The position numbers were made by a program, and so were the translations under genes. From contig JAAUQQ010000025.1 of assembly GCA_012032745.1 (NCBI GenBank), positions 1-24,684 on the forward strand: a stretch of DNA of 24,684 nucleotides, given 5' to 3'. This DNA is from Synechococcales cyanobacterium RM1_1_8 (GTDB taxonomy: Bacteria > Cyanobacteriota > Cyanobacteriia > PCC-9006 > JAAUQQ01). Positions 1 through 21,303 of the stretch are shown here, piece by piece (the first letter of the stretch is position 1; each line of letters begins with the position of its first letter). The notes under the pieces were generated by a model, which saw only the letters and a program-made list of their open reading frames with translations, did not search any database and was not told the DNA's origin.

Positions 1-121
1 AACCCCTCTCCCCTTGTGGGAGAGGGGCTCCAATCCGGCTCCCCTTCTCCATCAAATGGAGGAGGGGTTGGGGGATGAGGTCGGCCCAAGCTAGCCTGAG
101 AACTTTCGCCCTGCTGTACTA
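1..121. repeat. MITE-like palindromic dispersed element, copy A (left part cut off by the window edge)
   Basis: About 120 nt align nearly base-for-base with 6649-6770. Two strong hairpins are present: 3-27 (CCCCTCTCCC/GGGAGAGGGG) and about 41-67 (CCCCTTCTCCAT/ATGGAGGAGGGG). The element ends in ...CTGCTGTAC-TA-G, on the stop codon of the 119..739 gene. Confidence 0.7.
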
Positions 122-739
122 GAGTAAATCTGGCTGCTCCTCGGGCTCGCTCGGCTTGCTGGTGCTGCGATCGGGATCGGCAATGCGATGGGGATAGCGG
201 GAATTTTTTTGGATGTCGCCTTTGATTTGTTCCAGGTCCATGTAGCGATCGGCGACATTGATCAAGCTGTCGCTGGTCATGGAGCGCAGGCTGACCACCT
301 CGACGCGCACCCCTCGATAGCTGACGGCATCGACCGCATAGGCCAGATCCCCATCGCCGCTGACGAGGACAGCGGTGTCGTAGGAGCCCACTAGGGCCAT
401 CATGTCCACGGCAATTTCCACATCCAAGTTGGCTTTTTTAGAGCCATCGGGGAGCTGGACCAAATCCTTGGAAATGACCCGGTAGCCATTGCGCCGCATC
501 CAGAGCAAGAAGCCCTGCTGTTTTTCATTGCTGCGATCTACGCCCGTATAAAAAAACGATCGCAGCAGCCGCGACCCCCCCGTTAACCGGACCAGCAGCT
601 TGGTGTAGTCAATTTCCATACCGAGCTGGAGCGCGGCATAGAATAGGTTGGAGCCATCAATAAAGATCGCCACCCGGCCCCGGTTTTCCAAGACCTGCTC
701 CGGCGTAAAGATGGGATCTCGATCCAGAGATTGAATCAT
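119..739 (-). CDS. NYN/LabA-like (DUF88) PIN-fold domain protein
   Basis: The N-terminal VAIFIDGSNLFYA motif and the later VLVSGDGDLAYAV motif are the conserved acidic-residue blocks of NYN/LabA-type nucleases. ATG lies at 739-737 and TAG at 121-119. Confidence 0.8.
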   Translation of the reverse strand: MIQSLDRDPIFTPEQVLENRGRVAIFIDGSNLFYAALQLGMEIDYTKLLVRLTGGSRLLRSFFYTGVDRSNEKQQGFLLWMRRNGYRVISKDLVQLPDGSKKANLDVEIAVDMMALVGSYDTAVLVSGDGDLAYAVDAVSYRGVRVEVVSLRSMTSDSLINVADRYMDLEQIKGDIQKNSRYPHRIADPDRSTSKPSEPEEQPDLL

Positions 740-865: not shown

Positions 866-2509
866 TTAAACGGATTCCAGTTCAAGCTTGGCAAAAATCG
901 GAGAAGGTTGCTCCATGAGCTGTCCCCCAGGCAAACAACCCCACTGGGACTGCTCTCCATAGGCCAGGGAGGCTGACTTGTGCGTGATGGCCCCGCCCGT
1001 AACGGCTGCCGTCACGGCATTGAAGTCCAGCTTGTAACCGAGCTGCTGATAGATGGCATTGGCCAGGTTGGGCACCACGGGGGAAAGCAGGTAGGCCACT
1101 TGACGCACGGACTCTAGCACAGCGTAAAGGATGGACTCAACGGCGGCCTGGTTGCCTTCTTTGTAGCGGCTCCAGGGGGCCTCTTGATCGAGAAATTTAT
1201 TGCAGGCTTGGGCCAGGCTGAGGGCGCTGGTGCAAACTTCGCGGAAGGCTAGGGCTTCATAGGCGATGGCGATGCGATCGCCCAAACCATCCCCCATCTG
1301 CCTCAGGGGGTGATCCGCCGGAAAATCCTCACCCGAGAGCTGGGGCACGGTCAGATCGCAGTAGCGCTTGGCCATACCCAGGGTGCGGTTGAGCAGGTTG
1401 CCCAGATCATTGGCCAGGTCCGCATTCAGGGTATCGACAAAACGCGCTTCGCTGAAGTCGCCATCGCGGCCAAATTCGATCTCCTTGAGAAAGTAGTAGC
1501 GCACGGCATCGGAGCCGTATCGGTTGATCAAGGCGACGGGATCGAGCACATTGCCCAGGCTTTTACCCATTTTTTGGCCATCTTTGGTTAGGAAGCCATG
1601 GCCGAAGACGCGATCGCTCACGGGCAGTCCCGCCGACATCAGCATCGCTGGCCAATAGACCGCATGGAAGCGCAGAATGTCCTTGCCGATCAGATGCAGG
1701 CTAAAGGGAAACCATCTTGCCGTGGCGTTCTCCAGGGTGGGCTCATCCTCGGGCTCCAGCAGGGCGGTGACGTAGCCCAGCAGGGCATCGAACCAGACGT
1801 AGAGTGTGTGCCTGGCATCGCCGGGCACGGGAAAGCCCCAGTCCAAATTGATACGGGAGATCGAAAAATCCTTGAGGCCCTGGCTGACAAAGCTGAGGAC
1901 TTCGTTGCGGCGGCTGGGGGGCTGGATGAAGTCGGGATTGGCTGCGTAGAGGGCTTCCAGCTTTTCCTGATAGTTGGAGAGGCGAAAGAAGTAGTTTTCT
2001 TCATCGCGCCATTCCGCTTCCTGGTTGGGGTGGAGGGGACAGAATTTTTCGTCAATCAGATCGCGCTTTTCCTTGAACTCTTCGCAGCCGACACAGTAAA
2101 ACCCCTGCTGCTGGCTGAGATAGATATCGCCCTGGGCTTCGACGCGCTGATAAAACTCCGTGACGATCGCCCGGTGGCGTTCATCGGTGGTGCGGCTGAA
2201 GCGATCGTATCGGATATTGAGCTGTTGCCACAGATCCTGGAAGCTGCCGACGATCTGGTCGCAGTGTTCCTGGGGCGATCGCCCATGTTTCTCCGCCGTG
2301 CGCTGAATCTTCTGCCCATGCTCATCGGTGCCGGTCACCATCAGGGTGGGCCGCCCCCGCAGCCGCTGGTAGCGACAGAGGCTATCCAAGGCCATGGTGG
2401 TGTAGGCGCTGCCCACGTGGGGAACGTCATTGACGTAGTAGAGCGGCGTCGTGGCGGCAAAAGGGGCGAGGTTGGATGGGGCAGACGCTTTTGGATCGGC
2501 GTTGGACAT
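866..2509 (-). CDS. metG: methionine--tRNA ligase
   Basis: Class I aaRS HIGH-type block (YYVNDVPHVGSAYTT), CxxC...CP zinc knuckle (CVGCEEFK...FCPLH) and KMSKS-type block (GQKMGKSLGN). The track ORF starts at 2608, but the first plausible start is the ATG at 2509 (MSNADPK...), just before the conserved core. Confidence 0.93.
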   Translation of the reverse strand: MSNADPKASAPSNLAPFAATTPLYYVNDVPHVGSAYTTMALDSLCRYQRLRGRPTLMVTGTDEHGQKIQRTAEKHGRSPQEHCDQIVGSFQDLWQQLNIRYDRFSRTTDERHRAIVTEFYQRVEAQGDIYLSQQQGFYCVGCEEFKEKRDLIDEKFCPLHPNQEAEWRDEENYFFRLSNYQEKLEALYAANPDFIQPPSRRNEVLSFVSQGLKDFSISRINLDWGFPVPGDARHTLYVWFDALLGYVTALLEPEDEPTLENATARWFPFSLHLIGKDILRFHAVYWPAMLMSAGLPVSDRVFGHGFLTKDGQKMGKSLGNVLDPVALINRYGSDAVRYYFLKEIEFGRDGDFSEARFVDTLNADLANDLGNLLNRTLGMAKRYCDLTVPQLSGEDFPADHPLRQMGDGLGDRIAIAYEALAFREVCTSALSLAQACNKFLDQEAPWSRYKEGNQAAVESILYAVLESVRQVAYLLSPVVPNLANAIYQQLGYKLDFNAVTAAVTGGAITHKSASLAYGEQSQWGCLPGGQLMEQPSPIFAKLELESV

Positions 2510-2949
2510 ATAAGGCTCGACGACACGCCCAAACTGGGCTGATATATGGTTTTTTAAAGGGATTTTACAGGGATGCTGTGCCCTCGGACCCAGCGCTAGC
2601 CAGCACAAATCCTAGGCTTTGATAACATAATCCTATACTTCGCCCGAGGGGCCAACGCGGGTTTGATAAAGCTTAAGAAATATTTTGGCAAATTTGGGGC
2701 TTAAATCGCCCAGCGGGCGAGAAATGCAGTTTTGGAGTTCCGGATGGGTGGGACGTTGGGCAGGGGCGAACTAGGTTGTGCGCTCTAGGTCGTGCGATCG
2801 CCCCTGCTTGTCCGGAGCTGTGGGCGCGATCGCGCTGAAATCACCACGGAACCCCTTAGAATTTTTGCAGCTTTGTTTTGCAGCCTTGTCAGGGCTTACC
2901 CGCAAGCGACCTGCAAGCCCCATTCTCTCTCCACCGCTGAGGTCAAGCC

Positions 2950-4068
2950 ATGTTGCCGAATTCTCCTGCCGATGCTGCGGACATGTCCGGCATTACCCAG
3001 GTGTATCCGATTTTGTGGTGTGAGGATCACATTCTCCTGATCGATCAGACCCGCCTGCCTCGGGAATATGTGCTGGTGGACATCCGCCGGTCCAGCGACC
3101 TGGCCGAAGCGATTCGCACGATGATTGTGCGGGGAGCTCCGGCGATCGGCGTGGCCGCCGCCTATGGCATGTACCTGGGGGCCAAGGAACTGGCCGCAAC
3201 CCTTGGCGACTGGGATCGCCCCCGCTTCCTCGCTGGGCTGGCGGAAGTGGCGGCCATGCTGCGGGAAACGCGTCCCACGGCGGTGAACCTGTTTTGGGCA
3301 ATCGATCGCATGACTGGCCTGGCCCAGCACAGCCAAGCCGCCACGGCCCAGGCATGGGTGGCTGAACTCCTAGCCGAAGCCCAGGAGATCCACCTCTCAG
3401 ACCTCAAAACCTGCTACCGCATCGGCCAGCAGGGGTTGAATATTTTGCCCGATCGCCCCGAAAAACTGCGGATCATGACCCACTGCAATACGGGCTCCCT
3501 GGCCACGGCGGGCTATGGCACTGCCCTGGGAGTGGTGCGATCGGCCTGGCGATCGGGGCGGCTGGAGCGGGTCTATGCGGGGGAGACGCGGCCCCGGCTC
3601 CAAGGCGCGAAGCTGACCACCTGGGAATGCATCCAAGAAGACATTCCAGTCACGCTCATTACTGACAGCATGGCCGCCCACTGCATGGCCCAGGGGATGG
3701 TTGATCTGGTGATCGTCGGGGCTGATCGCATCGCCGCCAACGGCGACACCGCCAACAAAATCGGCACCTACAGTCTGGCCCTCGTGGCCAAGGCCCACAA
3801 CATTCCGTTCTACGTGGCGGCTCCCCTCTCCACGGTGGATTTCAGCCTCCCCGATGGCACCCAGATTCCCATCGAAGAGCGGGATCCCGCTGAGATTGCC
3901 CTGACCTGGGGAGAGCCGATCTGTCCTGCGGGCACTGAATTCTACAATCCCGCCTTCGATGTCACCCCAGCGGCCCTGATCACCGCTGTGATTACCGAAG
4001 AGGGCTGCGTCGCCCCAGAGGAACTGCCTAGCCTCGAACATGCCTTGCATCCCTCGGTGAAGCGCTAG
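2950..4068 (+). CDS. mtnA: S-methyl-5-thioribose-1-phosphate isomerase (eIF-2B alpha/beta/delta-like family)
   Basis: [42 protein letters not shown] and [18 protein letters not shown] are diagnostic MtnA blocks. An alternative start is the ATG at 2983. Confidence 0.9.
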
Positions 4069-8486: not shown

Positions 8487-10252
8487 GTGCAGAATTTGGA
8501 AGATCTCTGGGATATTTTGTCGGGGTTGGATGGACAGAGCTACGGGGCCTATAAGTCGATTCGAGGCGATTATCAGGCGGAGAGCTGGACGCTGTACATT
8601 GATAAGGTCCAGGGTGACCCCTTTGCGGCACCGAGCCTTTGCCGGGTGCTGGTGGAAGCGGACTATGCACAGTTGCCGGGCGAACTCTCGGCCAGTGAGA
8701 GCCGCATTTTGGGGCTAACGGATTTCTTGACGCGGCAGTTTGGTCAGGTGGCGCGGCAGTTGGGCCAGAGTCGGGGCTCGGGGGGCAGCGGGCGGATTGA
8801 GATGGCGCGGCCCAGTCAGGCGGTGCTGGTGCGGACGAGCGTGATTTGGCATGGGGGACTGAAGGCTGGGGGGCCGCTAGAAGCCCGGTTTACGGTGGGC
8901 CTGCCTGCCCAGGGACGGCGGATCTTGGGGCGACAGGCGGCGGCGATGTTCTGTGAGGATTTGCCGGAGATTGTGGCGCGATCGCTCTGTTACCCCGCCC
9001 TGGACGGCAATCAGTTGCTGGCGCATGTCAAAACGGTGGAGGATAGCCGCTGGTTGCGGGGCGAACTAAAAAGCCGGGGATTGGTGGCCTTTGTGCCCGA
9101 CGGCGCGGTGCTGGCGCGGCGCAGTGGCGTGGACGAACGGCCCCTGGAAGATGCGATCGCTTTCAATCCCCAGAGTCCTTGCGGGTGAGCTTTGACTGTC
9201 CCAACCGGGGCCAGATCTCGGGCCTGGGCATTCCCACGGGGGTGACCCTGATTGTGGGCGGCGGTTACCACGGCAAGTCAACGCTGTTGCAGGCGATCGA
9301 GGGGGGCGTTTACGACCATATTCCCGGCGATGGTCGGGAGCTGGTGGTGACTGATCCCAGCGCGGTGAAGGTACGGGCAGAGGATGGCCGAGCCGTGGCG
9401 GGGGTGAACCTGTCGCCGTTTATTAATCACTTGCCCCTGGGCCAATCGACGGTGCAGTTTTCCACGCCCAATGCCAGTGGCAGTACGTCCCAGGCGGCCA
9501 GCATCCTTGAGGCGCTGGAGGCGGGGGCGGGGGCCTTGCTGATGGATGAGGACACCTCGGCGACGAACTTCATGATTCGCGATCGCCGGATGCAGGCCCT
9601 AATCGCTAAGGAGCAGGAGCCGATTACGCCCTTTGTGGATAAGGTGCGGCAGTTGTGTGACGAACGAGGTGTTTCGACAATTCTGGTGATGGGGGGCAGT
9701 GGCGATTACTTTGAGGCGGCGGATCAGGTGATTGCCATGGATCAGTTTTTGCCTCGGGATGTGACGGCGGAGGCAAAGGCGATCGCGGCGGAGTTTGCCA
9801 CGGCGCGAATTGCGGAGGGGGGCGAAGGGTTCGGTGAGGTGACGGCGCGGCGGTTGCATTTGCAACGAGAGGAGGGGCGTCGAGAGCCTGGGCGAGGGCA
9901 GCGCTATGGCCGGGGTCGTCAGCGGGAACAGGATGATGGAGAGCGGCGGGTGAAGTCGAAGGTGCGGGGGCTGGATGGGCTTTCGATTGACCGGGAGGAG
10001 GTTGATTTGTCTGGGGTGGCGCAGTTGGTGGAGGACGGGCAGGTGAGGGCGATCGCGGCAGCTTTCGTTCAGCTTTACAGCCAGGGATTGGATGGCCAGG
10101 CGACGGTGGCGGAGGTGTTGGATGGGATTGAGGCGGCGATCGAGCGGGATGGCTTGGATGGGCTGACGACCTTGCTGCAAGGCAACCTGGTGCTGCCCCG
10201 GCGGCAGGATTTGGCGGCGGCGCTGAATCGCTGGCGAGCAGCGCATCTCTAA
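8487..10252 (+). pseudogene. ABC-class ATPase (PF09818-like 'predicted ATPase of the ABC class') split by a 1-nt frameshift near 9165-9180
   Basis: ORFs 8487..9188 and 9179..10252 are the N- and C-terminal halves of one protein family. The Walker A (GGGYHGKSTLL) lies just after the junction. The downstream frame already reads SPESLRVSF before ORF1 stops. Confidence 0.8.
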
Positions 10253-10325
10253 AGCTCTAATACTGCTCAGATCCGACGTTTCAGACTTGGCTGCATGGGA
10301 CAAATGTTGTGTAATAATTTACTCT
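10076..10325 (+). repeat. left copy of a ~250-bp direct repeat (3' end of the ATPase gene plus ~70 bp downstream)
   Basis: Colinear with 12428-12678 at offset 2352. By eye there are 5 substitutions and one 1-nt indel. Confidence 0.95.
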
Positions 10326-10408
10326 GTGCAGGCTCAGTCTATTCAATATTTCATGTGTCGCCGTAGCGAGTCGCTGCAATATTTCTATACGTTACATCCT
10401 AAAATCTA

Positions 10409-11071
10409 ATGACTACAAACTTTCAAGATGATGCGCGCGAAAGCAGTATGCGTGATCTATTTGAGCTTCAGAAAGATGAAGCAGAGGGGCGCTCTGGTAT
10501 AGATGCTTTTTTGCTTTTGGATGGTGAACGAATTCCGTTTGAGCTTAAAACGACTTCTAAAGGGTCCGTAACAACCGTTCGGGATTTTGGGCCTGATCAT
10601 ATTCAAAAATGGCAAGACAAACACTGGCTGATTGGTTTTTTCTTGAAGGGTAAAGAATATTACAAATATGCTTCTCCCTCTCAGATAAAGCCTTGGATTC
10701 AGAAGAAAGAACAGTATATTTCAAATGACTTCAAATTGGCAAATTTGCTGCCTAATAAAATTGATCTTGAAGACATGTATAAAATCCTGGGAGCTAAATC
10801 AGTCTATTCTTTAGCAGATGCAAAGTGCGTGCAGAAAAATCAGTATACAAAAGAAAAGTACTTAGAGCTTCAAGATTTGGAGTCAGGCTACAGCGCTCAT
10901 AGAATGTTGGACATTTTCCAGGATCGAGCTCGGTATTTACTTAAACGGGGGAGTACGCTGAATAATCCGCATATTCCACTCTCGTATTTCAAAGAATGTC
11001 CTGAAATAACTCAAGATCATGCTCAAAACCTTCGTCTCTTAGTTCGAGAATATTTTTTAAATTCTGCTTAG
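10409..11071 (+). CDS. putative Type II restriction endonuclease (PD-(D/E)XK-like), specificity unknown
   Basis: GIDAFLLLDGERIPFELKTT fits D...ExK. The gene is convergent with, and overlaps by 4 nt, an m5C methyltransferase gene, and it has the same AT-rich composition. I recognised no family. Confidence 0.5.
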   Translation: MTTNFQDDARESSMRDLFELQKDEAEGRSGIDAFLLLDGERIPFELKTTSKGSVTTVRDFGPDHIQKWQDKHWLIGFFLKGKEYYKYASPSQIKPWIQKKEQYISNDFKLANLLPNKIDLEDMYKILGAKSVYSLADAKCVQKNQYTKEKYLELQDLESGYSAHRMLDIFQDRARYLLKRGSTLNNPHIPLSYFKECPEITQDHAQNLRLLVREYFLNSA

Positions 11072-12285
11072 CTTTCTAGTGCTTCTAATACATTCTTAGC
11101 GACATGGTATGCCACAGGTGGAACGACGGAATTTCCAATTTGCCCTAGCCTTTGGTAGACTGCTCCTGAAAAATGCCAAGACTCCGGAAAACCCTGAAGT
11201 AAAGCAACGTCTTGAATAGATAGTCTAAAATGCTGATGCTTTGCGGGGAAGGCGGAAGCAGATTCTCTACTTTCTTGAACTCCATTGGGCCATATTTTCA
11301 TCTCTCCCCATGATTTCTGGCCTGCGGAGCTGTTCAGTATTGATGTTGTATTTCGTTTACCTGTAAAACCACTACGAATCGTAGGAGCCAAAGCGTCATA
11401 GTCAATATGAGTTAACCCTAGCGCTTCTCGAACGCCCATGGTTTTAGGAAGGCTTGCTTCAAATAGAGATAGACTGATGGGCTGATTTTGCTTTTGTAAA
11501 TGTCTCCAAGAATGTGTTGCTTGTGGAATCTTAAAATCCTTAAAGGCTGCTAGTTTTCTAAAGCCTACGAAGAACACACGCCGCCTAACTTGAGGTACGC
11601 CGAAATCAGCTGCGTGCATCTCAAATTTGACGATTGAGTATTCTGAAAGCTGATCGATAATAAACTTTTTTACAAAGTCATTAAACTTGGGATTGAGTAA
11701 ACCTAGAACATTCTCGGCAATGAAAGCGCTTGGTTTGATTGTATTAACTGCTCTATTGAACTCTCCCCACATATTTCTTTCATCATGAAGACCTTTCTGC
11801 TCGCCAGCAATTGAGAACGGCTGGCATGGTGGACCACCATGGATAACGTCTATTTCTCCCACGTAAGGCTGCCAGTTTATTTGGGTCACGTCACCTTCTT
11901 CAGGACCTCCATAAACCTTCCAGTCAGGGCAATTTAAGCGCAGCGTTTCTTTACAAATTGGAATGAGTTCATAGGATGCGATGTGTCTGTATCCTGCTCT
12001 AGATACGCCTAAATCTAATCCACCGCCACCACTAAACAAACTCAATGCAGTTAGTCCATGCTGGTCTAGCTGGGGCATCAGTGATAGGGGATCTAACAAA
12101 GGAGTATTAATAACGTGTACTCTCTCATGCAATCTTTTCACTGCATTCAGCTTGGCCATTCTAGATTCGTGAGATGTGCGCCTATATTCCTCGCGCTGCT
12201 CGGGTGATAAGTTATACTCTTTGCGAGCTTCATTTTTGTATACAGATAGCCTGGCTGATTGCTCTTTCATGATTACTAGCCTCAC
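11068..12285 (-). CDS. DNA (cytosine-5)-methyltransferase
   Basis: Motifs occur in canonical order: I LFSGGGGLDLG, IV GGPPCQPFS, VI FIAENVLGL, VIII QVRRRVFFVG, X GNSVVPPVA. A ~78-aa basic N-terminal extension precedes motif I. Confidence 0.93.
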   Translation of the reverse strand: MRLVIMKEQSARLSVYKNEARKEYNLSPEQREEYRRTSHESRMAKLNAVKRLHERVHVINTPLLDPLSLMPQLDQHGLTALSLFSGGGGLDLGVSRAGYRHIASYELIPICKETLRLNCPDWKVYGGPEEGDVTQINWQPYVGEIDVIHGGPPCQPFSIAGEQKGLHDERNMWGEFNRAVNTIKPSAFIAENVLGLLNPKFNDFVKKFIIDQLSEYSIVKFEMHAADFGVPQVRRRVFFVGFRKLAAFKDFKIPQATHSWRHLQKQNQPISLSLFEASLPKTMGVREALGLTHIDYDALAPTIRSGFTGKRNTTSILNSSAGQKSWGEMKIWPNGVQESRESASAFPAKHQHFRLSIQDVALLQGFPESWHFSGAVYQRLGQIGNSVVPPVAYHVAKNVLEALES

Positions 12286-12418
12286 TATGCTGACGTGGTA
12301 ATTGTAGAACAGGAGTACCGAAAAATCCAGGCTTAAATAAGCTTCGTATGGATGAAATAAATTTGTACCTTCCTAGGCTCTGGTATCGCTCACCAGGGTT
12401 GCTAAAGCCTTAGCGCTA

Positions 12419-12604
12419 GTGCGGTCATATAGCCAGGGATTGGATGGCCAGGCGACGGTGGCGGAGGTGTTGGATGGGATTGAGGCGGCGATCGAGCGGG
12501 ATGGCTTGGATGGGCTGACGACCTTGCTGCAAGGCAACCTGGCGCTGCCCCGGCGGCAGGATTTGGCGGCGGCGCTGAATCGCTGGCGAGCAGCGCATCT
12601 CTAA
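12419..12604 (+). pseudogene. orphan duplicated 3' fragment of the ABC-class ATPase gene
   Basis: The 61-aa ORF is identical to the C-terminus of 9179..10252 except V->A. It has no upstream part of the gene. Confidence 0.85.
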
Positions 12605-12678
12605 AGCTCTAATACTGCTCAGATCCGACATTTCAGACTTGGCTGCATGGGACAAATATTGTGTAATAACTTACCTCT
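12428..12678 (+). repeat. right copy of the ~250-bp direct repeat
   Basis: See 10076-10325. Confidence 0.95.
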
Positions 12679-12713
12679 CACATGCTCGGGCCTGTTGTAG
12701 CACAAAGCAAAAG

Positions 12714-12854
12714 ATGACTCCAGAACTCACTTGTCCTACCTGCTGCTCCTGCGACATTTCAAAGAGCGGAACAACGCGGCGAGGCAAACAAAACTACAAA
12801 TGCCGAGACTGCAACCGACAGTTTTGCCAATTCAGGGGGCTCCCCGTCTTCTAG
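12714..12854 (+). pseudogene. remnant of an IS1-family (InsA-like) transposase N-terminal zinc finger
   Basis: CPTCCSCDISKSGTTRRGKQNYKCRDCNRQF matches the CxxC-x(n)-GKQxYxCxxCxRQF pattern of IS1-type InsA. Only ~46 codons are present and no transposase body follows. Confidence 0.55.
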
Positions 12855-12990
12855 TTGTCGCGATAGGCAAATGTCATGTCTTGACACTTGATATGGGGTT
12901 ATGGGCGATCTCGGGCCTTCAACTCATGAAAATACCTCAGGTTGGAAACCCCTAGCCTTTAGGCAGGGGAGGAAAATCGGGACTGCGTCT

Positions 12991-14121
12991 TTAGGCGCAG
13001 TGGGCCGCTAAAAGCCCAGTAGAGCGGTGAATCAGTTCTACTTTTGATGCGGTGAACTGCCCTAGTCGTCTCCAGTTGGAGTCGGAGATAGAAACCTGAG
13101 TTTTTGTATCACCGCTGACCCAGCCGAAGAATTCTTTGCCAGCTTTCACCGCCCGAACAAAGTCACCTTTCCGTAATCCGTTGTGGCGAGTGATGGTGCC
13201 GCCATACTTCCGTCTTACTCCACCTTTGACAGGCTGAGCTAGATGTAGCTGTCTGCGGGAAATAGGTGGGCGTTTGATGATGCGAAATAGACCGTCGAGC
13301 GAAGTCTGAACAGCGCCAAACCAGTCAGCGCCATCAACACCTTGCTTGTAATGCTTGCGGTAGCCCACAAACTCACTAGAGGCCAATGCAACACCGTCAA
13401 CGGCATGGGAGGCAGGAGACTGTTCTTTCTTGTTGTGGGTCTTCTCCAGGCTTAGGTGATTACGAATCTGAGCAGTTTGCCAACCAAGTTGAGTCTTTAC
13501 CTTGGGGCCTAGCTTGGACAGCTCGGAAAGCATCCATTTTTGACGGACCATAACTGCTGAGAAACCTTTACCAGAACGCGCTTTTTTGCGTCCGCTGGTC
13601 AAATCAACATCGGCCTTGACGTACTCGTAAACAATAGAGCTGGCAGGGAATAGAACAAGCAGTTCTTTAACTACCCTGAGTTCAAGCTGACGATTAGCAC
13701 GAATAGAAGGAGCAACTTTCTTCTGGCGACGATTAGAGAACCTAGCCTGTCGGTGAGCCCGCAGATTGAAAGCAACCTTGCGATTGATTCTCCGACCACG
13801 CCGACCGCGCCGCATTAGTTTCTGGAATTCCTTGCGGTCTTTAACCCGCTTGAACGGCAAAACTAAGTGAGCTAGAAACAGCGTGAACTGGGAAGATTGA
13901 ACGCCAATGCCTGAGTAAAGCTTGCCGGGGTCAATACCAATGGCTATGGGTTGAGTCTTAGCGCCTGACGGTTCAGCGGTGAGCTGCACATACCAAACGT
14001 TAATATCAGACCAACGGCCTACAGCTTTGCCAGATTCGACCCATTTTCTAGCTCGCTTTGGGGTTGTGGGCATAAGCGGTTTTCCTTCTGGGTCTATAAC
14101 TGCGATTCGTTGAATTTGCAT
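12991..14121 (-). CDS. isrB: IsrB (HNH-less IscB-family OMEGA RNA-guided nickase)
   Basis: Domain order is PLMP motif (GKPLMPTTPKRARKW), RuvC-I (IGIDPGKLYSG), Arg-rich bridge helix (RRGRRGRRINRK...RFSNRRQKK), RuvC-II (IVYEYVKADVD), RuvC-III (SHAVDGVALAS), then a C-terminal GDFV...GKEFFGWVSG domain. The protein has a single Cys, so there is no HNH insert. Confidence 0.85.
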   Translation of the reverse strand: MQIQRIAVIDPEGKPLMPTTPKRARKWVESGKAVGRWSDINVWYVQLTAEPSGAKTQPIAIGIDPGKLYSGIGVQSSQFTLFLAHLVLPFKRVKDRKEFQKLMRRGRRGRRINRKVAFNLRAHRQARFSNRRQKKVAPSIRANRQLELRVVKELLVLFPASSIVYEYVKADVDLTSGRKKARSGKGFSAVMVRQKWMLSELSKLGPKVKTQLGWQTAQIRNHLSLEKTHNKKEQSPASHAVDGVALASSEFVGYRKHYKQGVDGADWFGAVQTSLDGLFRIIKRPPISRRQLHLAQPVKGGVRRKYGGTITRHNGLRKGDFVRAVKAGKEFFGWVSGDTKTQVSISDSNWRRLGQFTASKVELIHRSTGLLAAHCA

Positions 14122-14440
14122 TTTGGAGACAATCCCGCAAATGGTTTAAGTCCCTTACCCCAACGCGCCTAGAATGTCTTGCCTTTACGCAGCGCCTACA
14201 ACAACTAGGCTTAGAGTTAATCCGAACTAGGGAAGCATCCGGAAGTCTGTATCAAGGCGCGTCTCTAGGGGTAGTCAGCACTTAGTGGCTTGGTTGTTCA
14301 AGCCAAGCCCCCGATCTTTAGTCGGGGGTTGCTGACCTGCCAATCCCTGGGCTGGAGAAGTGAGGGTGACCCCCACCGCTAACCCTGCACGAGACCGAGA
14401 CAATGCCTCGGCCACCGCCAGCTCCCCATCAATGAACCTT
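14122..14440 (-). ncRNA. candidate omega-RNA scaffold (plus guide at its 5' end) of the IsrB locus; ends approximate
   Basis: The 332-nt gap directly 5' of isrB has no credible CDS and contains several perfect helices, including a three-way junction at 14274-14336. The position matches where IscB/IsrB omega-RNAs are encoded. Confidence 0.5.
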
Positions 14441-14453
14441 CGCTGCACCTTCT

Positions 14454-16172
14454 CTAAAGTTGAGAGAGGCTCCGGCGGGTTGGGCTGGCGCTCAGGGCTT
14501 GCCACTCGGACTGGCCGAGGTACTGGAGGCGGCGGCTAAGGAAGAAGCTGAGGCCGGAGATCAGCGCGAGGTGAGCGGCGATCGCCCCCACCGTATCTCC
14601 CCAGCCCAAGCCATGGAGCGCAGTGTAGGAAAACGTCGTCATCAGCCACAGCAGCCTGAACGGCGAATTATAGGAATCCAACCCCAGCATCCCCAAGACA
14701 ATCGGCAAGCCCAGAACCCAGGCCAAGACGATGCCAAAAGTGACCCAGCGCCCGTGGAGCAGATTCGCCAGGGCAACCCACTGCATCGCTAGGGCACAGC
14801 CCAGCAGCGAAGCCGCCGCAAAAAACCAACCGATGAGGCTCTCCGTGGCAATCCCCGTGGCTAGGTTCCCATGATGATTGAAGCCAATACCCACAAGCGC
14901 TACACCGGTGATAATCGCTAAGTTAACCGCCACCGCCAACACTGAGGGGCTGCCATCATGGCTCAGCAAATCGCCCAGGGGGCTGCGCTGGCCCTGGGGC
15001 CGCTGGTGGCGATACCTGGCCCAGTCCAGCACTGCCTGGCGGGGCGGCAGCAGTAAGAACATCAAAATCACCGCGCAGATCGCCATGGAGACAGGGTAGC
15101 TCCACAGCTCTGAATATCCATCCCAAGACTGCACAGTAAAGCCCATCATCAGCAGAGAGAGAAAGAGCGTCAGGCCATAGCTTTCCACCTTGCCCAAGGA
15201 GGTTTTGGCCGGGGTTTGAAACTTGCGCTCCAGCACCCGCCAAAACCAAGCGCCCAGGAGCAAAGCATTGGGCAAGGCCAGGAACAAATACTCGTCGCCG
15301 CCCTTACCCGCAGGCCAGAAAAACCAGCCCAAATCGCGAAAGCCATCTAAAGCAGCGCCGTCACTAAAGAGCCAAACGCTGCGGCCACTCCAGCCAGTTA
15401 CGTCCCAATAGGCCAGGAGCTGGAGCGGGTGGAACAGACGAAACCAATCCAAAGAACTGTTGCTCTGGTTGGCGGACCAGCCGCCACTGAGCAGTCCAAT
15501 GCTAATGCCAGAAATCAGCCAGGTCTGGAAGCCTTGCAGCCCCGGTGTCAGCAGGGCAAACCACATGGCAGCGGCGTAGAAGCAAAAGGCGATCGCCCCC
15601 AGCAAGCCATAAAACCCCAGCAAAATCTTCAAAGGATAGGTCGCCATCAGGCCCGTCGCCAGGTGTAGCGGCAACATTATGCCAGTGCCGAGATATGGCA
15701 GCACCGGCACCCCCAGCAGCTTGCCCAGCAAAATCTGACGGCTCGACTGGGGACTCATGCGCAAAAAATTGAGCGTGCCCCGGCGGGTTTCCTTGGAGAG
15801 ATCCGCCGCCAGCAGATAGACACCGCCAATGAGCAGCACCCAGACCAGGACAAAGCTCAGATCGCGAAACACATCGGCCCACACCAGGGGCCAGTCCAGT
15901 CGCGGCACGTTGTCGGGGCCGACCTGGCAGCCCGTTTCCACCTGCTTCAGGCAATACTCGATGCCTGGATAAAATTCATTGTTGGTTCTGGTCGGTAGCT
16001 GGGCAAGGCGTTGTAATAGCAAGAGCCCCTGCACCGCCATGGAGATCGCCAGGGTGATCAGTAGGTTGCGCCAGCGCAGTCGCCCCTGCCATTCCCGCAG
16101 GAGCTGGGGGTTGCGATTGCCCACATAATCAGCCGCAATTTCGGTCACATTTTCAATCAGTTTGGAGGCCAT
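14454..16172 (-). CDS. ABC-2-type transporter permease (large polytopic membrane protein)
   Basis: More than 10 hydrophobic segments. The start overlaps the stop of the upstream ABC ATPase gene by 1 nt (16172). Confidence 0.7.
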   Translation of the reverse strand: MASKLIENVTEIAADYVGNRNPQLLREWQGRLRWRNLLITLAISMAVQGLLLLQRLAQLPTRTNNEFYPGIEYCLKQVETGCQVGPDNVPRLDWPLVWADVFRDLSFVLVWVLLIGGVYLLAADLSKETRRGTLNFLRMSPQSSRQILLGKLLGVPVLPYLGTGIMLPLHLATGLMATYPLKILLGFYGLLGAIAFCFYAAAMWFALLTPGLQGFQTWLISGISIGLLSGGWSANQSNSSLDWFRLFHPLQLLAYWDVTGWSGRSVWLFSDGAALDGFRDLGWFFWPAGKGGDEYLFLALPNALLLGAWFWRVLERKFQTPAKTSLGKVESYGLTLFLSLLMMGFTVQSWDGYSELWSYPVSMAICAVILMFLLLPPRQAVLDWARYRHQRPQGQRSPLGDLLSHDGSPSVLAVAVNLAIITGVALVGIGFNHHGNLATGIATESLIGWFFAAASLLGCALAMQWVALANLLHGRWVTFGIVLAWVLGLPIVLGMLGLDSYNSPFRLLWLMTTFSYTALHGLGWGDTVGAIAAHLALISGLSFFLSRRLQYLGQSEWQALSASPTRRSLSQL

Positions 16173-19156: not shown

Positions 19157-19996
19157 TCAAGCTGCGACAGGCTGACTTAGAGAGAGCCAGTAGTCCTCTT
19201 CAAATTGAACAGGGGAGAGAAATCCAATCGTTGAATGAATTCGTTGCCGATTATAGAAAACCTCAATCCACTCAGAGATCGCGGTCTTCGCTTCAGCATG
19301 ATCAGCAAAAGTCATCCGATGAATAAACTCCATCTTAATCGTACCAAAGAAACTCTCTGCAACTGCATTATCCCAGCAATTAGCACGACGACTCATGCTG
19401 CCTTGAATTCCTGCATTTTGCAATGCAATCTGATAGTCATTACTCGCATATTGACTCCCTCGGTCAGAATGAAATATCAATCCCTGAGATGAGGCTTGAC
19501 GCTGCCCTAAAGCGGCCTCTAATGCCGTCAACACCAACTCGGTTCGCATGTGGTCTGCCATCGACCAGCCCACCACTCGGCGAGAAAACAGGTCAATGAT
19601 CACCGCCAAGTATAACCAGCCTTCTCCCGTCCAAATGTAGGTCATGTCAGCCACCCACACTCGATCCGGTTCAGTGGTCTTAAATTCCCGATTCAACAGA
19701 TTGTCGGAGATTGGGAAAGAATGCTCAGAATCAGTGGTGGCCTTGAATTTACGCTTCGGACGGGCGCGAAGTTCAAGCTCGGCCATCAGGCGGGCCACCC
19801 GGTTGAGACCCACCTCAAAGCCTCGCTCCAACAAGGCTTCATGCATCCGGGGAGAGCCATAGGTACCTCGACTCGCCTCGAAGATTTCAACAATCTGCTC
19901 AGACAAAATCTGATTCTCCCTTGCTCGTGGGGAGCTATTACGCTTACACCAGGCGTAATAGCCACTGCGGGTTAAATTCAACACACGACACATCAA
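19157..19996 (-). CDS. IS3-family transposase OrfB (rve/DDE integrase core); +1, not -1, relative to orfA
   Basis: MCRVLNLTRSGYYAW, WVADMTYI (D), HSDRGSQYAS (D) and NAVAESFFGTIK (E) are the DDE catalytic blocks. The frame analysis is given in the findings. Confidence 0.85.
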   Translation of the reverse strand: MMCRVLNLTRSGYYAWCKRNSSPRARENQILSEQIVEIFEASRGTYGSPRMHEALLERGFEVGLNRVARLMAELELRARPKRKFKATTDSEHSFPISDNLLNREFKTTEPDRVWVADMTYIWTGEGWLYLAVIIDLFSRRVVGWSMADHMRTELVLTALEAALGQRQASSQGLIFHSDRGSQYASNDYQIALQNAGIQGSMSRRANCWDNAVAESFFGTIKMEFIHRMTFADHAEAKTAISEWIEVFYNRQRIHSTIGFLSPVQFEEDYWLSLSQPVAA

Positions 19997-20027
19997 ATTG
20001 ATTGGAAATTGACCTTCTCCGCATGGA

Positions 20028-20354
20028 TTAGCTCGTAGGGTCGGAGCTTTCCCTTGCGAAGAAGGTCGCTGCTTTTTTTAGGAAGTCACGCTCCATTTTT
20101 ACGCGTTTGAGTTCACGTCGCAGCATCAAGAGCTCTTGTTGTTCTGCACTCGTTAATTCACCCTCTATTCTGGGTTGTGCGTCAATCTGAGATTGCTTGA
20201 CCCATTTGCGCAGAGCACTTTCGGTCAATCCCATCTCCTTAGCAACCTGGCTGACTGGCTTGCCAGATTGCTTCACAATGTTGACGGCTTCGGCTTTCTG
20301 CTCGTCCGTAAATAGGCGGCGTGGTTTTTTCGTCATTTGAACATTCTCCTTCAT
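20028..20354 (-). CDS. IS3-family transposase OrfA (HTH)
   Basis: FTDEQKAEAV...GKPVSQVAKEMGLTESALRKWVKQ HTH, a leucine-zipper-like segment, and C-terminal FLKKAATFFA typical of IS3 OrfA. Confidence 0.9.
   Translation of the reverse strand: MKENVQMTKKPRRLFTDEQKAEAVNIVKQSGKPVSQVAKEMGLTESALRKWVKQSQIDAQPRIEGELTSAEQQELLMLRRELKRVKMERDFLKKAATFFARESSDPTS
20073..20079 (-). promoter_or_regulatory. A7 slippery run for programmed -1 ribosomal frameshifting (cta aaa aaa gca)
   Basis: The -1 frame after the run reads KKSSDLLRKGKLRPYELIHAEKVNF, the usual OrfAB linker of IS3 elements. Confidence 0.75.
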
Positions 20355-20454
20355 TTCGACTCATTTGGAATGTCAACTTTTTCGGGGGAATGTCACCCCT
20401 CCACTGCCCCTGTGCTTCTCCCAACTCATAGGAGCCAAAACCCAAAATCCCCGC

Positions 20455-21303
20455 CTACTCAGCCTGACGCAAGGCTTGGACCTCCGCTAGGCTCAGGCCC
20501 GTGGTTTGACTGATGGTGGTGTCATCCAGGAGATTGAGCAATTCCTGGGCAATGCGGCGTTGGGCCTGGCGATCGCCCTGCTCAATCCCCTGACGCAAAG
20601 CCAGCCTCACCGCATTGCGCTGGTCATGGATAAACATCTCCCGCTGCTCCAGGTCTTCTAATTCCTCGGGGGTCAAATTCGCCTGGCTGGCCAGCTCAAA
20701 CGCCTGGCGCAGGGCCGGAACCTCCCCAAAGCTGCCAGGAACCTCCTGTAGTTGTTTGGCGTTTTTGAGGAAAAACAGCCACTGTTCAGCCAGACCAGTC
20801 ACTGCCTCAATCGCGCGCTCAAACTTGGGCAGTTCAACAAAAATCAACTCCAAATCATGGGTGGGATAATCGAAGAGAAAGTCCTTTTCCTTGAGAATGA
20901 AGCTGGAGCGATAGCTCTCCAGCTCCTCGAACATGACAAAATCCGTAATCGTCAGGGCAATCACTGGATTGAGTAGGCGATAGTCATCGCCGCTGCCGAG
21001 CTGGGTGGAATAGGCTTTGGCGGCGTTGTAGAGGATACGCTTTTCAAAACCCTCAATGTTGAGCACCTGCATTTCAATGATCACGCTGGTGCCATCCGCC
21101 AGTTGGGCTTTGACATCCAGGTAGCTGTCCTTCATGCCCCGCACCCGAGGTGCTTGGTAGGGGTTGAGGATTTCTAGGCTCTGGATGGTGGATTCGCCCT
21201 CGTAGATCAGGCCATTGAGAAAGCTAATCAGAACGGTCTGGCTCTGGGGGGAGCCAAAGATCTTTTTGAAGGCAAAGTCGGTCTTGGGGTTGATAAACCG
21301 CAT
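20455..21303 (-). CDS. Rpn-family recombination-promoting nuclease / putative transposase (PD-(D/E)XK)
   Basis: The N-terminal INPKTDFAFKKIFG and DSYLDVKAQ...IIEMQV blocks are diagnostic of this family, which is abundant in cyanobacteria. Confidence 0.85.
   Translation of the reverse strand: MRFINPKTDFAFKKIFGSPQSQTVLISFLNGLIYEGESTIQSLEILNPYQAPRVRGMKDSYLDVKAQLADGTSVIIEMQVLNIEGFEKRILYNAAKAYSTQLGSGDDYRLLNPVIALTITDFVMFEELESYRSSFILKEKDFLFDYPTHDLELIFVELPKFERAIEAVTGLAEQWLFFLKNAKQLQEVPGSFGEVPALRQAFELASQANLTPEELEDLEQREMFIHDQRNAVRLALRQGIEQGDRQAQRRIAQELLNLLDDTTISQTTGLSLAEVQALRQAE

Follow-up and report, generated by a model that had tools for sequence, protein, structure and literature searches.

IsrB proteins are miniature relatives of Cas9, and the literature describes them as ancestral to Cas9 and as nickases of the OMEGA type. 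Retention or homing of a transposon by guided cleavage has been shown for TnpB and for IscB. The closest described systems are DtIsrB of Desulfovirgula thermocuniculi, whose complex with its omega-RNA has been solved (PDB 8DMB; Hirano et al. 2022, PMC9581776), and CwIsrB of Crocosphaera watsonii and DsIsrB of Dolichospermum, which have both been shown to nick DNA. The published target-adjacent motif (TAM) is NTGA for DtIsrB and NTG for the other two, and R323 and Q326 of DtIsrB have been shown experimentally to read it (PMC9581776). Here we analyse a stretch of 24,684 nucleotides (the window; contig JAAUQQ010000025.1 of assembly GCA_012032745.1) of the metagenome-assembled genome (MAG) of Synechococcales cyanobacterium RM1_1_8. 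The window holds one copy of an isrB gene, the product of which is publicly annotated as 'hypothetical protein', and one copy of an omega-RNA scaffold. We consider it probable, at roughly 0.85, that this locus is a ~1.41-kb non-autonomous IS200/IS605-type OMEGA element (~12928-14336) that is transcribed from the minus strand and encodes IsrB with its omega-RNA directly 5' of it.

Each sequence-level defining feature of IsrB that could be tested was found at the locus, which is a new, well-formed but ordinary member of a large and previously described family; more than 2,400 homologues of the protein were found. The locus is probably an active and, judged from the conserved boundaries, cleanly delimited IsrB orthologue. 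It adds one intact and compact predicted RNA-guided nickase (376 aa plus an RNA of ~235 nt) from a mesophilic cyanobacterium, of which the guide, the scaffold, both pseudoknots, the element ends and the predicted ATGA TAM are all delimited. The clade members CwIsrB and DsIsrB have been proven active, and the practical value of the locus is that of a ready-to-test orthologue. The public annotation, which contains no RNA feature, and the gathering threshold of Rfam both miss such loci. No new question is opened by it; the role of a nick versus a break and the identity of the mobiliser are generic issues of IsrB.

Identity of the protein

According to the profile and solved-structure searches, the protein is an IsrB and not an IscB, in agreement with an earlier note made from the sequence of the window. 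The motifs that the note had read from the translation of the 376-aa open reading frame (ORF), i.e., PLMP, GIDPG, the Arg-rich bridge helix, YEYV and SHAVDG, are all present in that order (Table 1). The single Pfam match of the protein is RRXRR (PF14239; E 1.1e-43; residues 7-179). The claim that a protein with one cysteine has no HNH module is borne out as well: the sole cysteine is C375, no HNH domain was matched in Pfam at E-values up to 1, and the protein is collinear with DtIsrB, with no insertion separating RuvC-II from RuvC-III. Its length of 376 aa is in line with the ~350 aa of an IsrB, which has neither an HNH domain nor a REC lobe. The NCBIfam IscB equivalog model gave 97.6 bits against a cut-off of 175, a sub-threshold score that is expected where a protein does not have part of the IscB architecture. 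Among all PDB sequences, the best match was DtIsrB (8dmb_P; E 2.3e-45), which aligned end to end (query residues 3-370); nine IscB sequences matched mainly at the N-terminus, seven of them over ~6-114 to 6-130, TbaIscB over 5-124 and HfmIscB over 8-167.

In the alignment to DtIsrB, the PLMP motifs coincide, and GIDPG, VYEYV and SHAVDG pair with AVDPG, VTEDV and THANDA, respectively. The TAM-reading residues R323 and Q326 of DtIsrB align with R352 and Q355, which agrees with the TAM-interaction-like C-terminal domain proposed in the note. An alignment of 21 homologues (60-88% identity), which also served as input for an AlphaFold2 model, showed that the catalytic columns D64, E166, H239 and D242 are invariant, as are R352, M17 and P18, and that Q355 is at least 90% conserved. 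In the AlphaFold2 model, the beta-rich C-terminal domain reaches a predicted local distance difference test score (pLDDT) of 80-91, and the segments of low pLDDT are Arg-rich segments equivalent to the RNA contacts in the solved DtIsrB complex. A Foldseek search of the PDB placed this model nearest to DtIsrB (8dmb_P, E 3.6e-24, TM-scores 0.56/0.64), with IscBs and then RuvC resolvases as the next matches. The ratio of nonsynonymous to synonymous substitution rates (dN/dS) is 0.04-0.07 against the three closest relatives (83-86% amino acid identity), with synonymous sites saturated. By this measure isrB is under strong purifying selection, and the gene has therefore been kept functional.

The window protein and DtIsrB have the domain order PLMP, RuvC-I, bridge helix, RuvC-II, HNH-less linker, RuvC-III and TAM-interacting domain in common, but they are only ~30% identical in the structural alignment, and the host of DtIsrB is a thermophilic Firmicute whereas that of the window protein is a mesophilic cyanobacterium. 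Closer at hand, CwIsrB and DsIsrB belong to the same cyanobacterial clade as the window protein, and their predicted omega-RNAs are of subgroup B2, as is that of the window; the window copy differs from them in its host, guide and flanks. RRXRR proteins of C. watsonii (P0031, P0046, P0058 and P0064; not matched to CwIsrB itself) are 62-63% identical to the window protein over 98% of the length. With IscB (e.g., OgeuIscB, PDB 7XHT/7UTN), the locus shares the PLMP domain, the RuvC-I motif, the bridge helix, a 5' omega-RNA and the IS200/IS605 context; however, the RuvC domain of IscB is interrupted by an HNH domain that the window protein does not have, and IscB cleaves both strands.

Table 1. 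Coordinates of the features of the isrB locus (nucleotide positions are those of the window; protein features are given as residues of IsrB).
Feature	Position	Strand	Description	Basis
isrB coding sequence	12991..14121	-	376 aa	ORF list with translations
PLMP domain	residues ~1-60		motif P15-L-M-P18
RuvC-I	D64		motif GIDPG
Arg-rich bridge helix	residues ~93-132		RRGRRGRRINRK at 104-115 (R104-K115)
RuvC-II	E166		motif VYEYV
HNH-less linker	residues ~167-235
RuvC-III	H239/D242		motif SHAVDG
C-terminal TAM-interacting domain	R352/Q355			alignment to DtIsrB
Omega-RNA scaffold	14122..14336	-	215 nt, ends at isrB ATG	HEARO match, minimum free energy fold, covariation
S1	14336-14330/14280-14274	-		named by analogy with DtIsrB
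SL1	14328-14308	-	CCCCCGA-CUAAAGA-UCGGGGG, 8 nt inside the element boundary
SL2	14305-14286	-		named by analogy with DtIsrB
S2 (nexus)	14271-14268/14161-14158	-		named by analogy with DtIsrB
S3	14263-14255/14170-14162	-		named by analogy with DtIsrB
SL4	14243-14221	-		named by analogy with DtIsrB
SL5	14210-14194	-		named by analogy with DtIsrB
SL6	14191-14180	-		named by analogy with DtIsrB
Adaptor pseudoknot	14200..14298	-	SL2 loop AACAAC (14298-14293) with SL5 loop GUUGUU (14205-14200)
Nexus pseudoknot	14151..14233	-	SL4 loop UCCCU (14233-14229) with AGGGA (14155-14151), 3' of S2
Predicted guide	14337..14356	-	5'-UCCAGCCCAGGGAUUGGCAG-3'; beyond the element boundary, within the 3'-flanking DNA of the ABC permease gene
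3' untranslated end of element	12928..12990	-	left transposon end as seen from the opposite strand	conservation with L014 and L016
Conserved hairpin	12949-12969	-	CUAAAG-type loop, CCCCUGCC-UAAA-GGCUAGGGG
Weaker stop-proximal hairpin	~12973-12990	-	CUAAAG-type loop
Predicted TAM ATGA	12924..12927	-	directly 3' of the element; TCAT on + is the transposase target site

The omega-RNA scaffold

The earlier note had described the whole gap of 332 nt between the isrB start codon (14121) and the stop codon of an ABC permease gene (14454) as non-coding and structured, and had proposed that an omega-RNA lies in it, directly 5' of the ORF and with the guide at its own 5' end. The length of the gap and the placement of the omega-RNA hold, but only the 215 nt next to the start codon (14122-14336) are more structured than expected by chance, with a minimum free energy (MFE) of -82.6 kcal/mol versus -63.3 +/- 4.4 for shuffled sequences (z = -4.38; equalled by none of 200 shuffles). 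The 117 nt farther from the gene (14337-14453) were rejected as part of the structured RNA, as they fold no better than shuffles (z = -0.05) and show no conservation in relatives.

At gathering thresholds, Rfam gave nothing in the window. In E-value mode, the only Rfam match within 12700-14800 is HEARO (RF02033; 56.8 bits; E 2.5e-10), which lies at minus-strand positions 14144-14336, covers the full model (1-211 of 211) and contains the same helices as the MFE structure. The RNA shares with HEARO the 5' stem with its UAAAG-loop hairpin, the nexus stem and the internal hairpins, but it lies under the gathering score, so that standard Rfam annotation misses it. HEARO RNA was later recognised as the omega-RNA of IscB and IsrB by Meers et al. 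(bioRxiv 10.1101/2023.03.14.532601), who also made the point that the Rfam model contains neither the pseudoknots nor the 3' part. The scaffolds of relatives likewise give full-length sub-threshold HEARO matches (37-47 bits). The window scaffold is best regarded as belonging to a divergent branch of the IsrB type for which the Rfam seed provides poor coverage.

We fetched 96 loci encoding relatives of IsrB, in 89 of which nhmmer located the scaffold 5' of the isrB homologue. In an alignment of 41 omega-RNA sequences (A4, made with MAFFT), the RNAalifold consensus contains compensatory changes in 28 of its 32 pairs. A fuller structure was built by hand from the window sequence and comprises S1, SL1, SL2, S2, S3, SL4, SL5, SL6 and two pseudoknots, all of which are base-paired in the window copy. 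On the same alignment, 88.6% of its cells are paired, versus 70.8 ± 0.6% in column shuffles (0 of 500 as high) and 28-53% when the partners are slid by 1-3 columns, and 45 of its 59 pairs show changes on both sides. It should be noted that a structure taken from the window sequence is by itself favoured over the slid controls; the compensatory counts are free of that bias. The adaptor pseudoknot is paired in 93.8% of cells and five of its six pairs have changed on both sides, for instance with C-G in the window where the relative L014 has U-A. The nexus pseudoknot is paired in 100% of cells and two of its five pairs covary (UCUCU/AGAGA and UCGCC/GGCGA in relatives). The SL1 helix covaries (RNAalifold columns 11-15/48-52). 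Helix S2 is out of register on the MAFFT alignment in the hand-built column mapping (42.9% paired), and it pairs well and covaries in the RNAalifold register (columns 98-102 with 259-262).

Pairing between SL2 and SL5 defines the group B omega-RNAs, to which those of DtIsrB, CwIsrB and DsIsrB belong (PMC9581776). The window scaffold has the same pseudoknot partners as the DtIsrB omega-RNA, i.e., SL2 with SL5 in the adaptor and SL4 with the 3' strand in the nexus, and is by its predicted structure of the IsrB group B architecture. Within this group, the scaffold of DtIsrB measures 262 nt (subgroup B1), whereas that of the window, at ~215 nt, is without SL3 and has an S2-S3 linker of 4 nt, which fits subgroup B2, the cyanobacterial omega-RNA type (PMC9581776).

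In one relative (L075), the SL6 region holds an insertion of ~45 nt (~1430-1475; columns 185-229 of A4) with an extra GC-rich hairpin, a sequence comparison which shows that this peripheral stem-loop tolerates expansion.

The guide and the 5' boundary

Of the three closest relatives, which were compared by blastn, L014 and L016 become similar to the window precisely at 14336, where the HEARO match also has its 5' end. Identity to relatives is 89-90% in the scaffold versus 24-31%, the random level, over the 60 columns upstream. More generally, the conserved block opens with G/TTCA(A/C)... after unrelated sequence in more than 40 loci, and the 20 nt directly 5' of the scaffold are unrelated among more than 40 relatives. 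A sharp conserved start behind a variable 5' flank is the sequence signature of a scaffold/guide junction, and the guide is therefore predicted to be the flank directly 5' of the scaffold, at ~14337-14356, where a length of 16-20 nt was assumed by analogy with DtIsrB (20 nt). Had conservation stopped at the start codon, this would have spoken against an omega-RNA; in the other copies, it runs 215 nt farther upstream and ends sharply at 14336. The guide had previously been placed around 14340-14450, abutting or overlapping the permease gene; that position has to be abandoned, as the predicted guide is clear of the gene.

No second match to the guide was found in the window. The guide side 14337-14350 (minus strand) shares the 11-mer CCAGGGATTGG with each copy of a 247-nt direct repeat described below (10081-10099 and 12433-12451, plus strand), where 16 of 19 bases agree in all and ATGG follows. 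We rejected this resemblance as meaningful, as 22% of the 21-nt windows here have an 11-mer match elsewhere and the TAM-proximal end mismatches.

Element ends and mobility

The 3' boundary also differs from that given in the earlier note, in which the element began at 12991. Conservation with L014 and L016 continues for ~63-65 nt past the isrB stop codon, through two hairpins, to ...GGTATTTTC, and places the boundary at ~12928 (resolved to within ~3 nt, ~12925-12928) and the length of the element at ~1409 bp. The GC content falls from ~0.60 in the host genes to ~0.50 inside the element. The hairpin at 12949-12969 has been kept through compensatory changes in L014 and L016 and resembles SL1, and the two are similar enough in sequence that they may be the paired hairpins of the transposon ends. 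SL1, which as a DNA hairpin has a z of -2.85, probably doubles as the subterminal hairpin of the right end, by analogy with iscB elements, for which Meers et al. reported that the RNA upstream of iscB is bounded by the right end (bioRxiv 10.1101/2023.03.14.532601). A CUAAAG-type loop is common to the three hairpins of the element (SL1 and the two 3' of the stop codon), and likewise to those of L014 and L016.

The 4-mer adjacent to the element is ATGA in the window and in L014, and ATGC in L016. In many sub-families, conservation ends with ...GATGA(A) or TTGAA, and the conserved termini read GTCA.../...ATGA(A); the target motif appears as the last conserved bases because it is retained at every insertion. 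The ATGA(A) at the junction fits the NTGA and NTG TAMs of the described IsrBs, and its complement, TTCAT/TCAT, is of the same kind as the TnpA targets described for IS605 elements of Geobacillus (bioRxiv 10.1101/2023.03.14.532601).

Evidence of movement comes from relatives. The cyanobacterial MAG MFD02832.bin.2.2 (L005-L007, L010-L012) contains at least five full copies of a related element of 1420 bp, which are 99.6-100% identical, lie in different flanks, start with GTCAATAAC and end with ...TGTTGAA, TTGAA being the terminal motif; a further copy (L010) is truncated after 906 bp, with the break at 3667. These near-identical copies point to a recently active IsrB element family. In the window, no Pfam match to a Y1 (IS200/IS605) transposase was found in the 28 ORF translations scanned (candidate genes, not all ORFs of at least 100 aa), and no direct all-frame Y1_Tnp search was made. 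The earlier claim that tnpA is missing thus stands for the scanned ORFs, but not for every frame of the window, and it is on this basis that the element is called non-autonomous. No empty site was found, the nearest homologue of the flanking ABC permease (63% identical) being too distant for a nucleotide comparison; the predicted empty-site sequence is ...GGATTGGCAG/ATGAGTTGAAGG, with the slash at the junction. Joining 12924/12927 to 14337 gives no continuous IS1-like reading frame.

In L064, two omega-RNA scaffolds (1292-1515 and 1646-1867) are encoded by the same strand at a distance of 350 nt. A complete element of 1377 bp (1646-3022) begins with the second scaffold and is apparently inserted just inside the 5' part of the ORF of the first, and the arrangement looks like a nested or tandem IsrB insertion.

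Proposed mechanism and alternatives

The mechanism that we propose for guide use, target recognition, nicking and re-copying follows the published biochemistry of the family, with TAM and nicking taken from PMC9581776. The transcript would start in the flank, probably by read-through from the ABC-transporter operon, and be trimmed to a flank-derived guide of ~20 nt (UCCAGCCCAGGGAUUGGCAG) plus the scaffold, which would bind IsrB. The resulting ribonucleoprotein would recognise DNA that reads 5'-guide sequence-ATGA-3' (protospacer TCCAGCCCAGGGATTGGCAG), and the RuvC site would nick the non-target strand. The target would be exactly the 'donor joint' that excision of the element by a Y1 transposase acting in trans would restore, so that the nick would favour re-copying of the element by recombination, i.e., transposon retention or homing.

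With regard to transcription, the upstream gene encodes an ABC-2-type permease of 572 aa that lies on the same strand and is co-oriented with isrB. An orientation bias, with co-orientation to upstream genes, has been reported for iscB elements (bioRxiv 10.1101/2023.03.14.532601). No sigma-70 promoter was predicted in 12700-14700, and no intrinsic terminator around the omega-RNA. Because the permease is co-oriented and no sigma-70-like promoter is predicted, read-through from the ABC-transporter operon would be the most economical source of the omega-RNA.

Several points weigh against this reading of the locus as a mobile OMEGA element with a working guide RNA. The HEARO score is under the curated gathering score of 83 bits, and no promoter-like site is predicted. 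The confidence of the AlphaFold2 model is only moderate (pLDDT 69). The 3' boundary and, with it, the TAM register are ambiguous by ~3 nt, and the insertion event and the pre-insertion sequence cannot be reconstructed, given the degenerate IS1-like left flank and the lack of an empty site. As tnpA was not found among the tested ORFs and a single copy is visible, any current mobility is putative. Lastly, that a nick, as opposed to a double-strand break, promotes retention is for IsrB an argument by analogy.

Some of these points would also fit a stranded relic, i.e., an IsrB element that has lost both its mobility and its function but has not yet degraded. There is one copy in the window, no Y1 transposase among the tested ORFs and no predicted promoter, and the surroundings are a junkyard of mobile DNA, with an IS1-like fragment, a restriction-modification (R-M) cassette between 247-nt repeats and IS3. 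We nevertheless regard a relic as unlikely: the ORF is uninterrupted with all catalytic and TAM-reading residues intact, dN/dS is ~0.05 against relatives with saturated synonymous sites, and each omega-RNA helix as well as both pseudoknots can still pair. Moreover, tnpA is found nearby in only ~1.5% of IscB/IsrB loci (bioRxiv 10.1101/2023.03.14.532601), so that the tnpA-less state is the usual one.

Still less probable is a role beyond retention that draws on the surroundings of the element, in which the omega-RNA would be expressed as a 3' extension of the ABC operon transcript and couple IsrB targeting to the activity of the operon, or in which the system would be exapted, e.g., for nick-stimulated recombination that shapes the adjacent mobile-DNA hotspot (R-M cassette, IS1 remnant).

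The phage-borne relatives bring up exaptation in a more general form, namely that IsrB and its omega-RNA act not in transposon retention but for the host or a phage, for instance as a defence or regulatory system or by recombination at a fixed target. The closest relatives lie in phage-like neighbourhoods, with VRR_NUC, NUDIX and NblA in L014 (1-6623) and with DUF932 in L015. A scan of viral_contigs with the IsrB protein gave no relatives; the phage GenBank collection yielded the Microcystis phages Ma-LMM01 and MaMV-DC, the RRXRR proteins of which are ~61% identical to the window protein over 99% of the length. The copies of these phages have the full scaffold upstream (nhmmer E 2e-52) and the element end ...CGATGAA, but they reside in phages, and their annotation goes no further than 'RRXRR domain-containing' or 'hypothetical'; that of Ma-LMM01 (L097, 151605-152753) sits between a uracil-DNA glycosylase and a clamp loader. 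The isrB copies of L014, L015 and Ma-LMM01 are all co-oriented with upstream genes. Strong purifying selection without a linked transposase would also be compatible with a function of this kind. However, the guide is nothing more than the neighbouring flank, just as it is in mobile copies, it has no second match in the window, and relatives are sharply bounded, near-identical multi-copy elements with variable guides, all of which makes exaptation a very improbable explanation next to that of a mobile OMEGA element. Finally, that the structured RNA is only a cis-acting 5' leader that controls the translation or stability of isrB, with no guide RNA, can practically be dismissed, since, although the scaffold reaches as far as the start codon and could mask the ribosome-binding region with its last helix, it matches the guide scaffold bound by DtIsrB helix for helix and pseudoknot for pseudoknot (PMC9581776) and its sharp conserved 5' boundary abuts a hypervariable segment for which a leader has no need.

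Neighbouring mobile DNA

The DNA on the 3' side of the isrB element contains several other traces of mobile elements. A 247-nt direct repeat (98% identical; 10076-10322 and 12428-12674) brackets a cassette (10323-12427) with a GC content of 0.38-0.45, which encodes a C-5 cytosine DNA methyltransferase (11068-12285, minus strand) and, convergently, a 220-aa ORF (10409-11071, plus strand) that has no Pfam match and presumably encodes the restriction enzyme. Within the repeat, the 3' end of an ABC_ATPase/MRB1590_C gene is duplicated, and there is thus an orphan second C-terminal fragment at 12419-12604. This arrangement resembles the insertion of an R-M system that generated a long duplication of its target. 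The duplicated gene itself (ABC_N/ABC_ATPase/MRB1590_C, 8487-10252, plus strand) is broken up into the ORFs 8487-9188 and 9179-10252, which overlap; this suggests a frameshift that stems from a sequencing or assembly error or marks a pseudogene.

Between the second copy of the repeat and the left end of the IsrB element lies a degenerate IS1-like fragment (12639-12924, plus strand), which has an InsA zinc ribbon (PF03811; E 0.0016) followed by stop codons and frameshifts, and which does not continue beyond the element. About 5 kb away on the other side, the region 19157-21303 (minus strand) contains an IS3-family pair, consisting of HTH_Tnp_1 (20028-20354) and an rve integrase (19157-19996), and a PD-(D/E)XK 'PDDEXK_2' transposase-like gene (20455-21303, minus strand).

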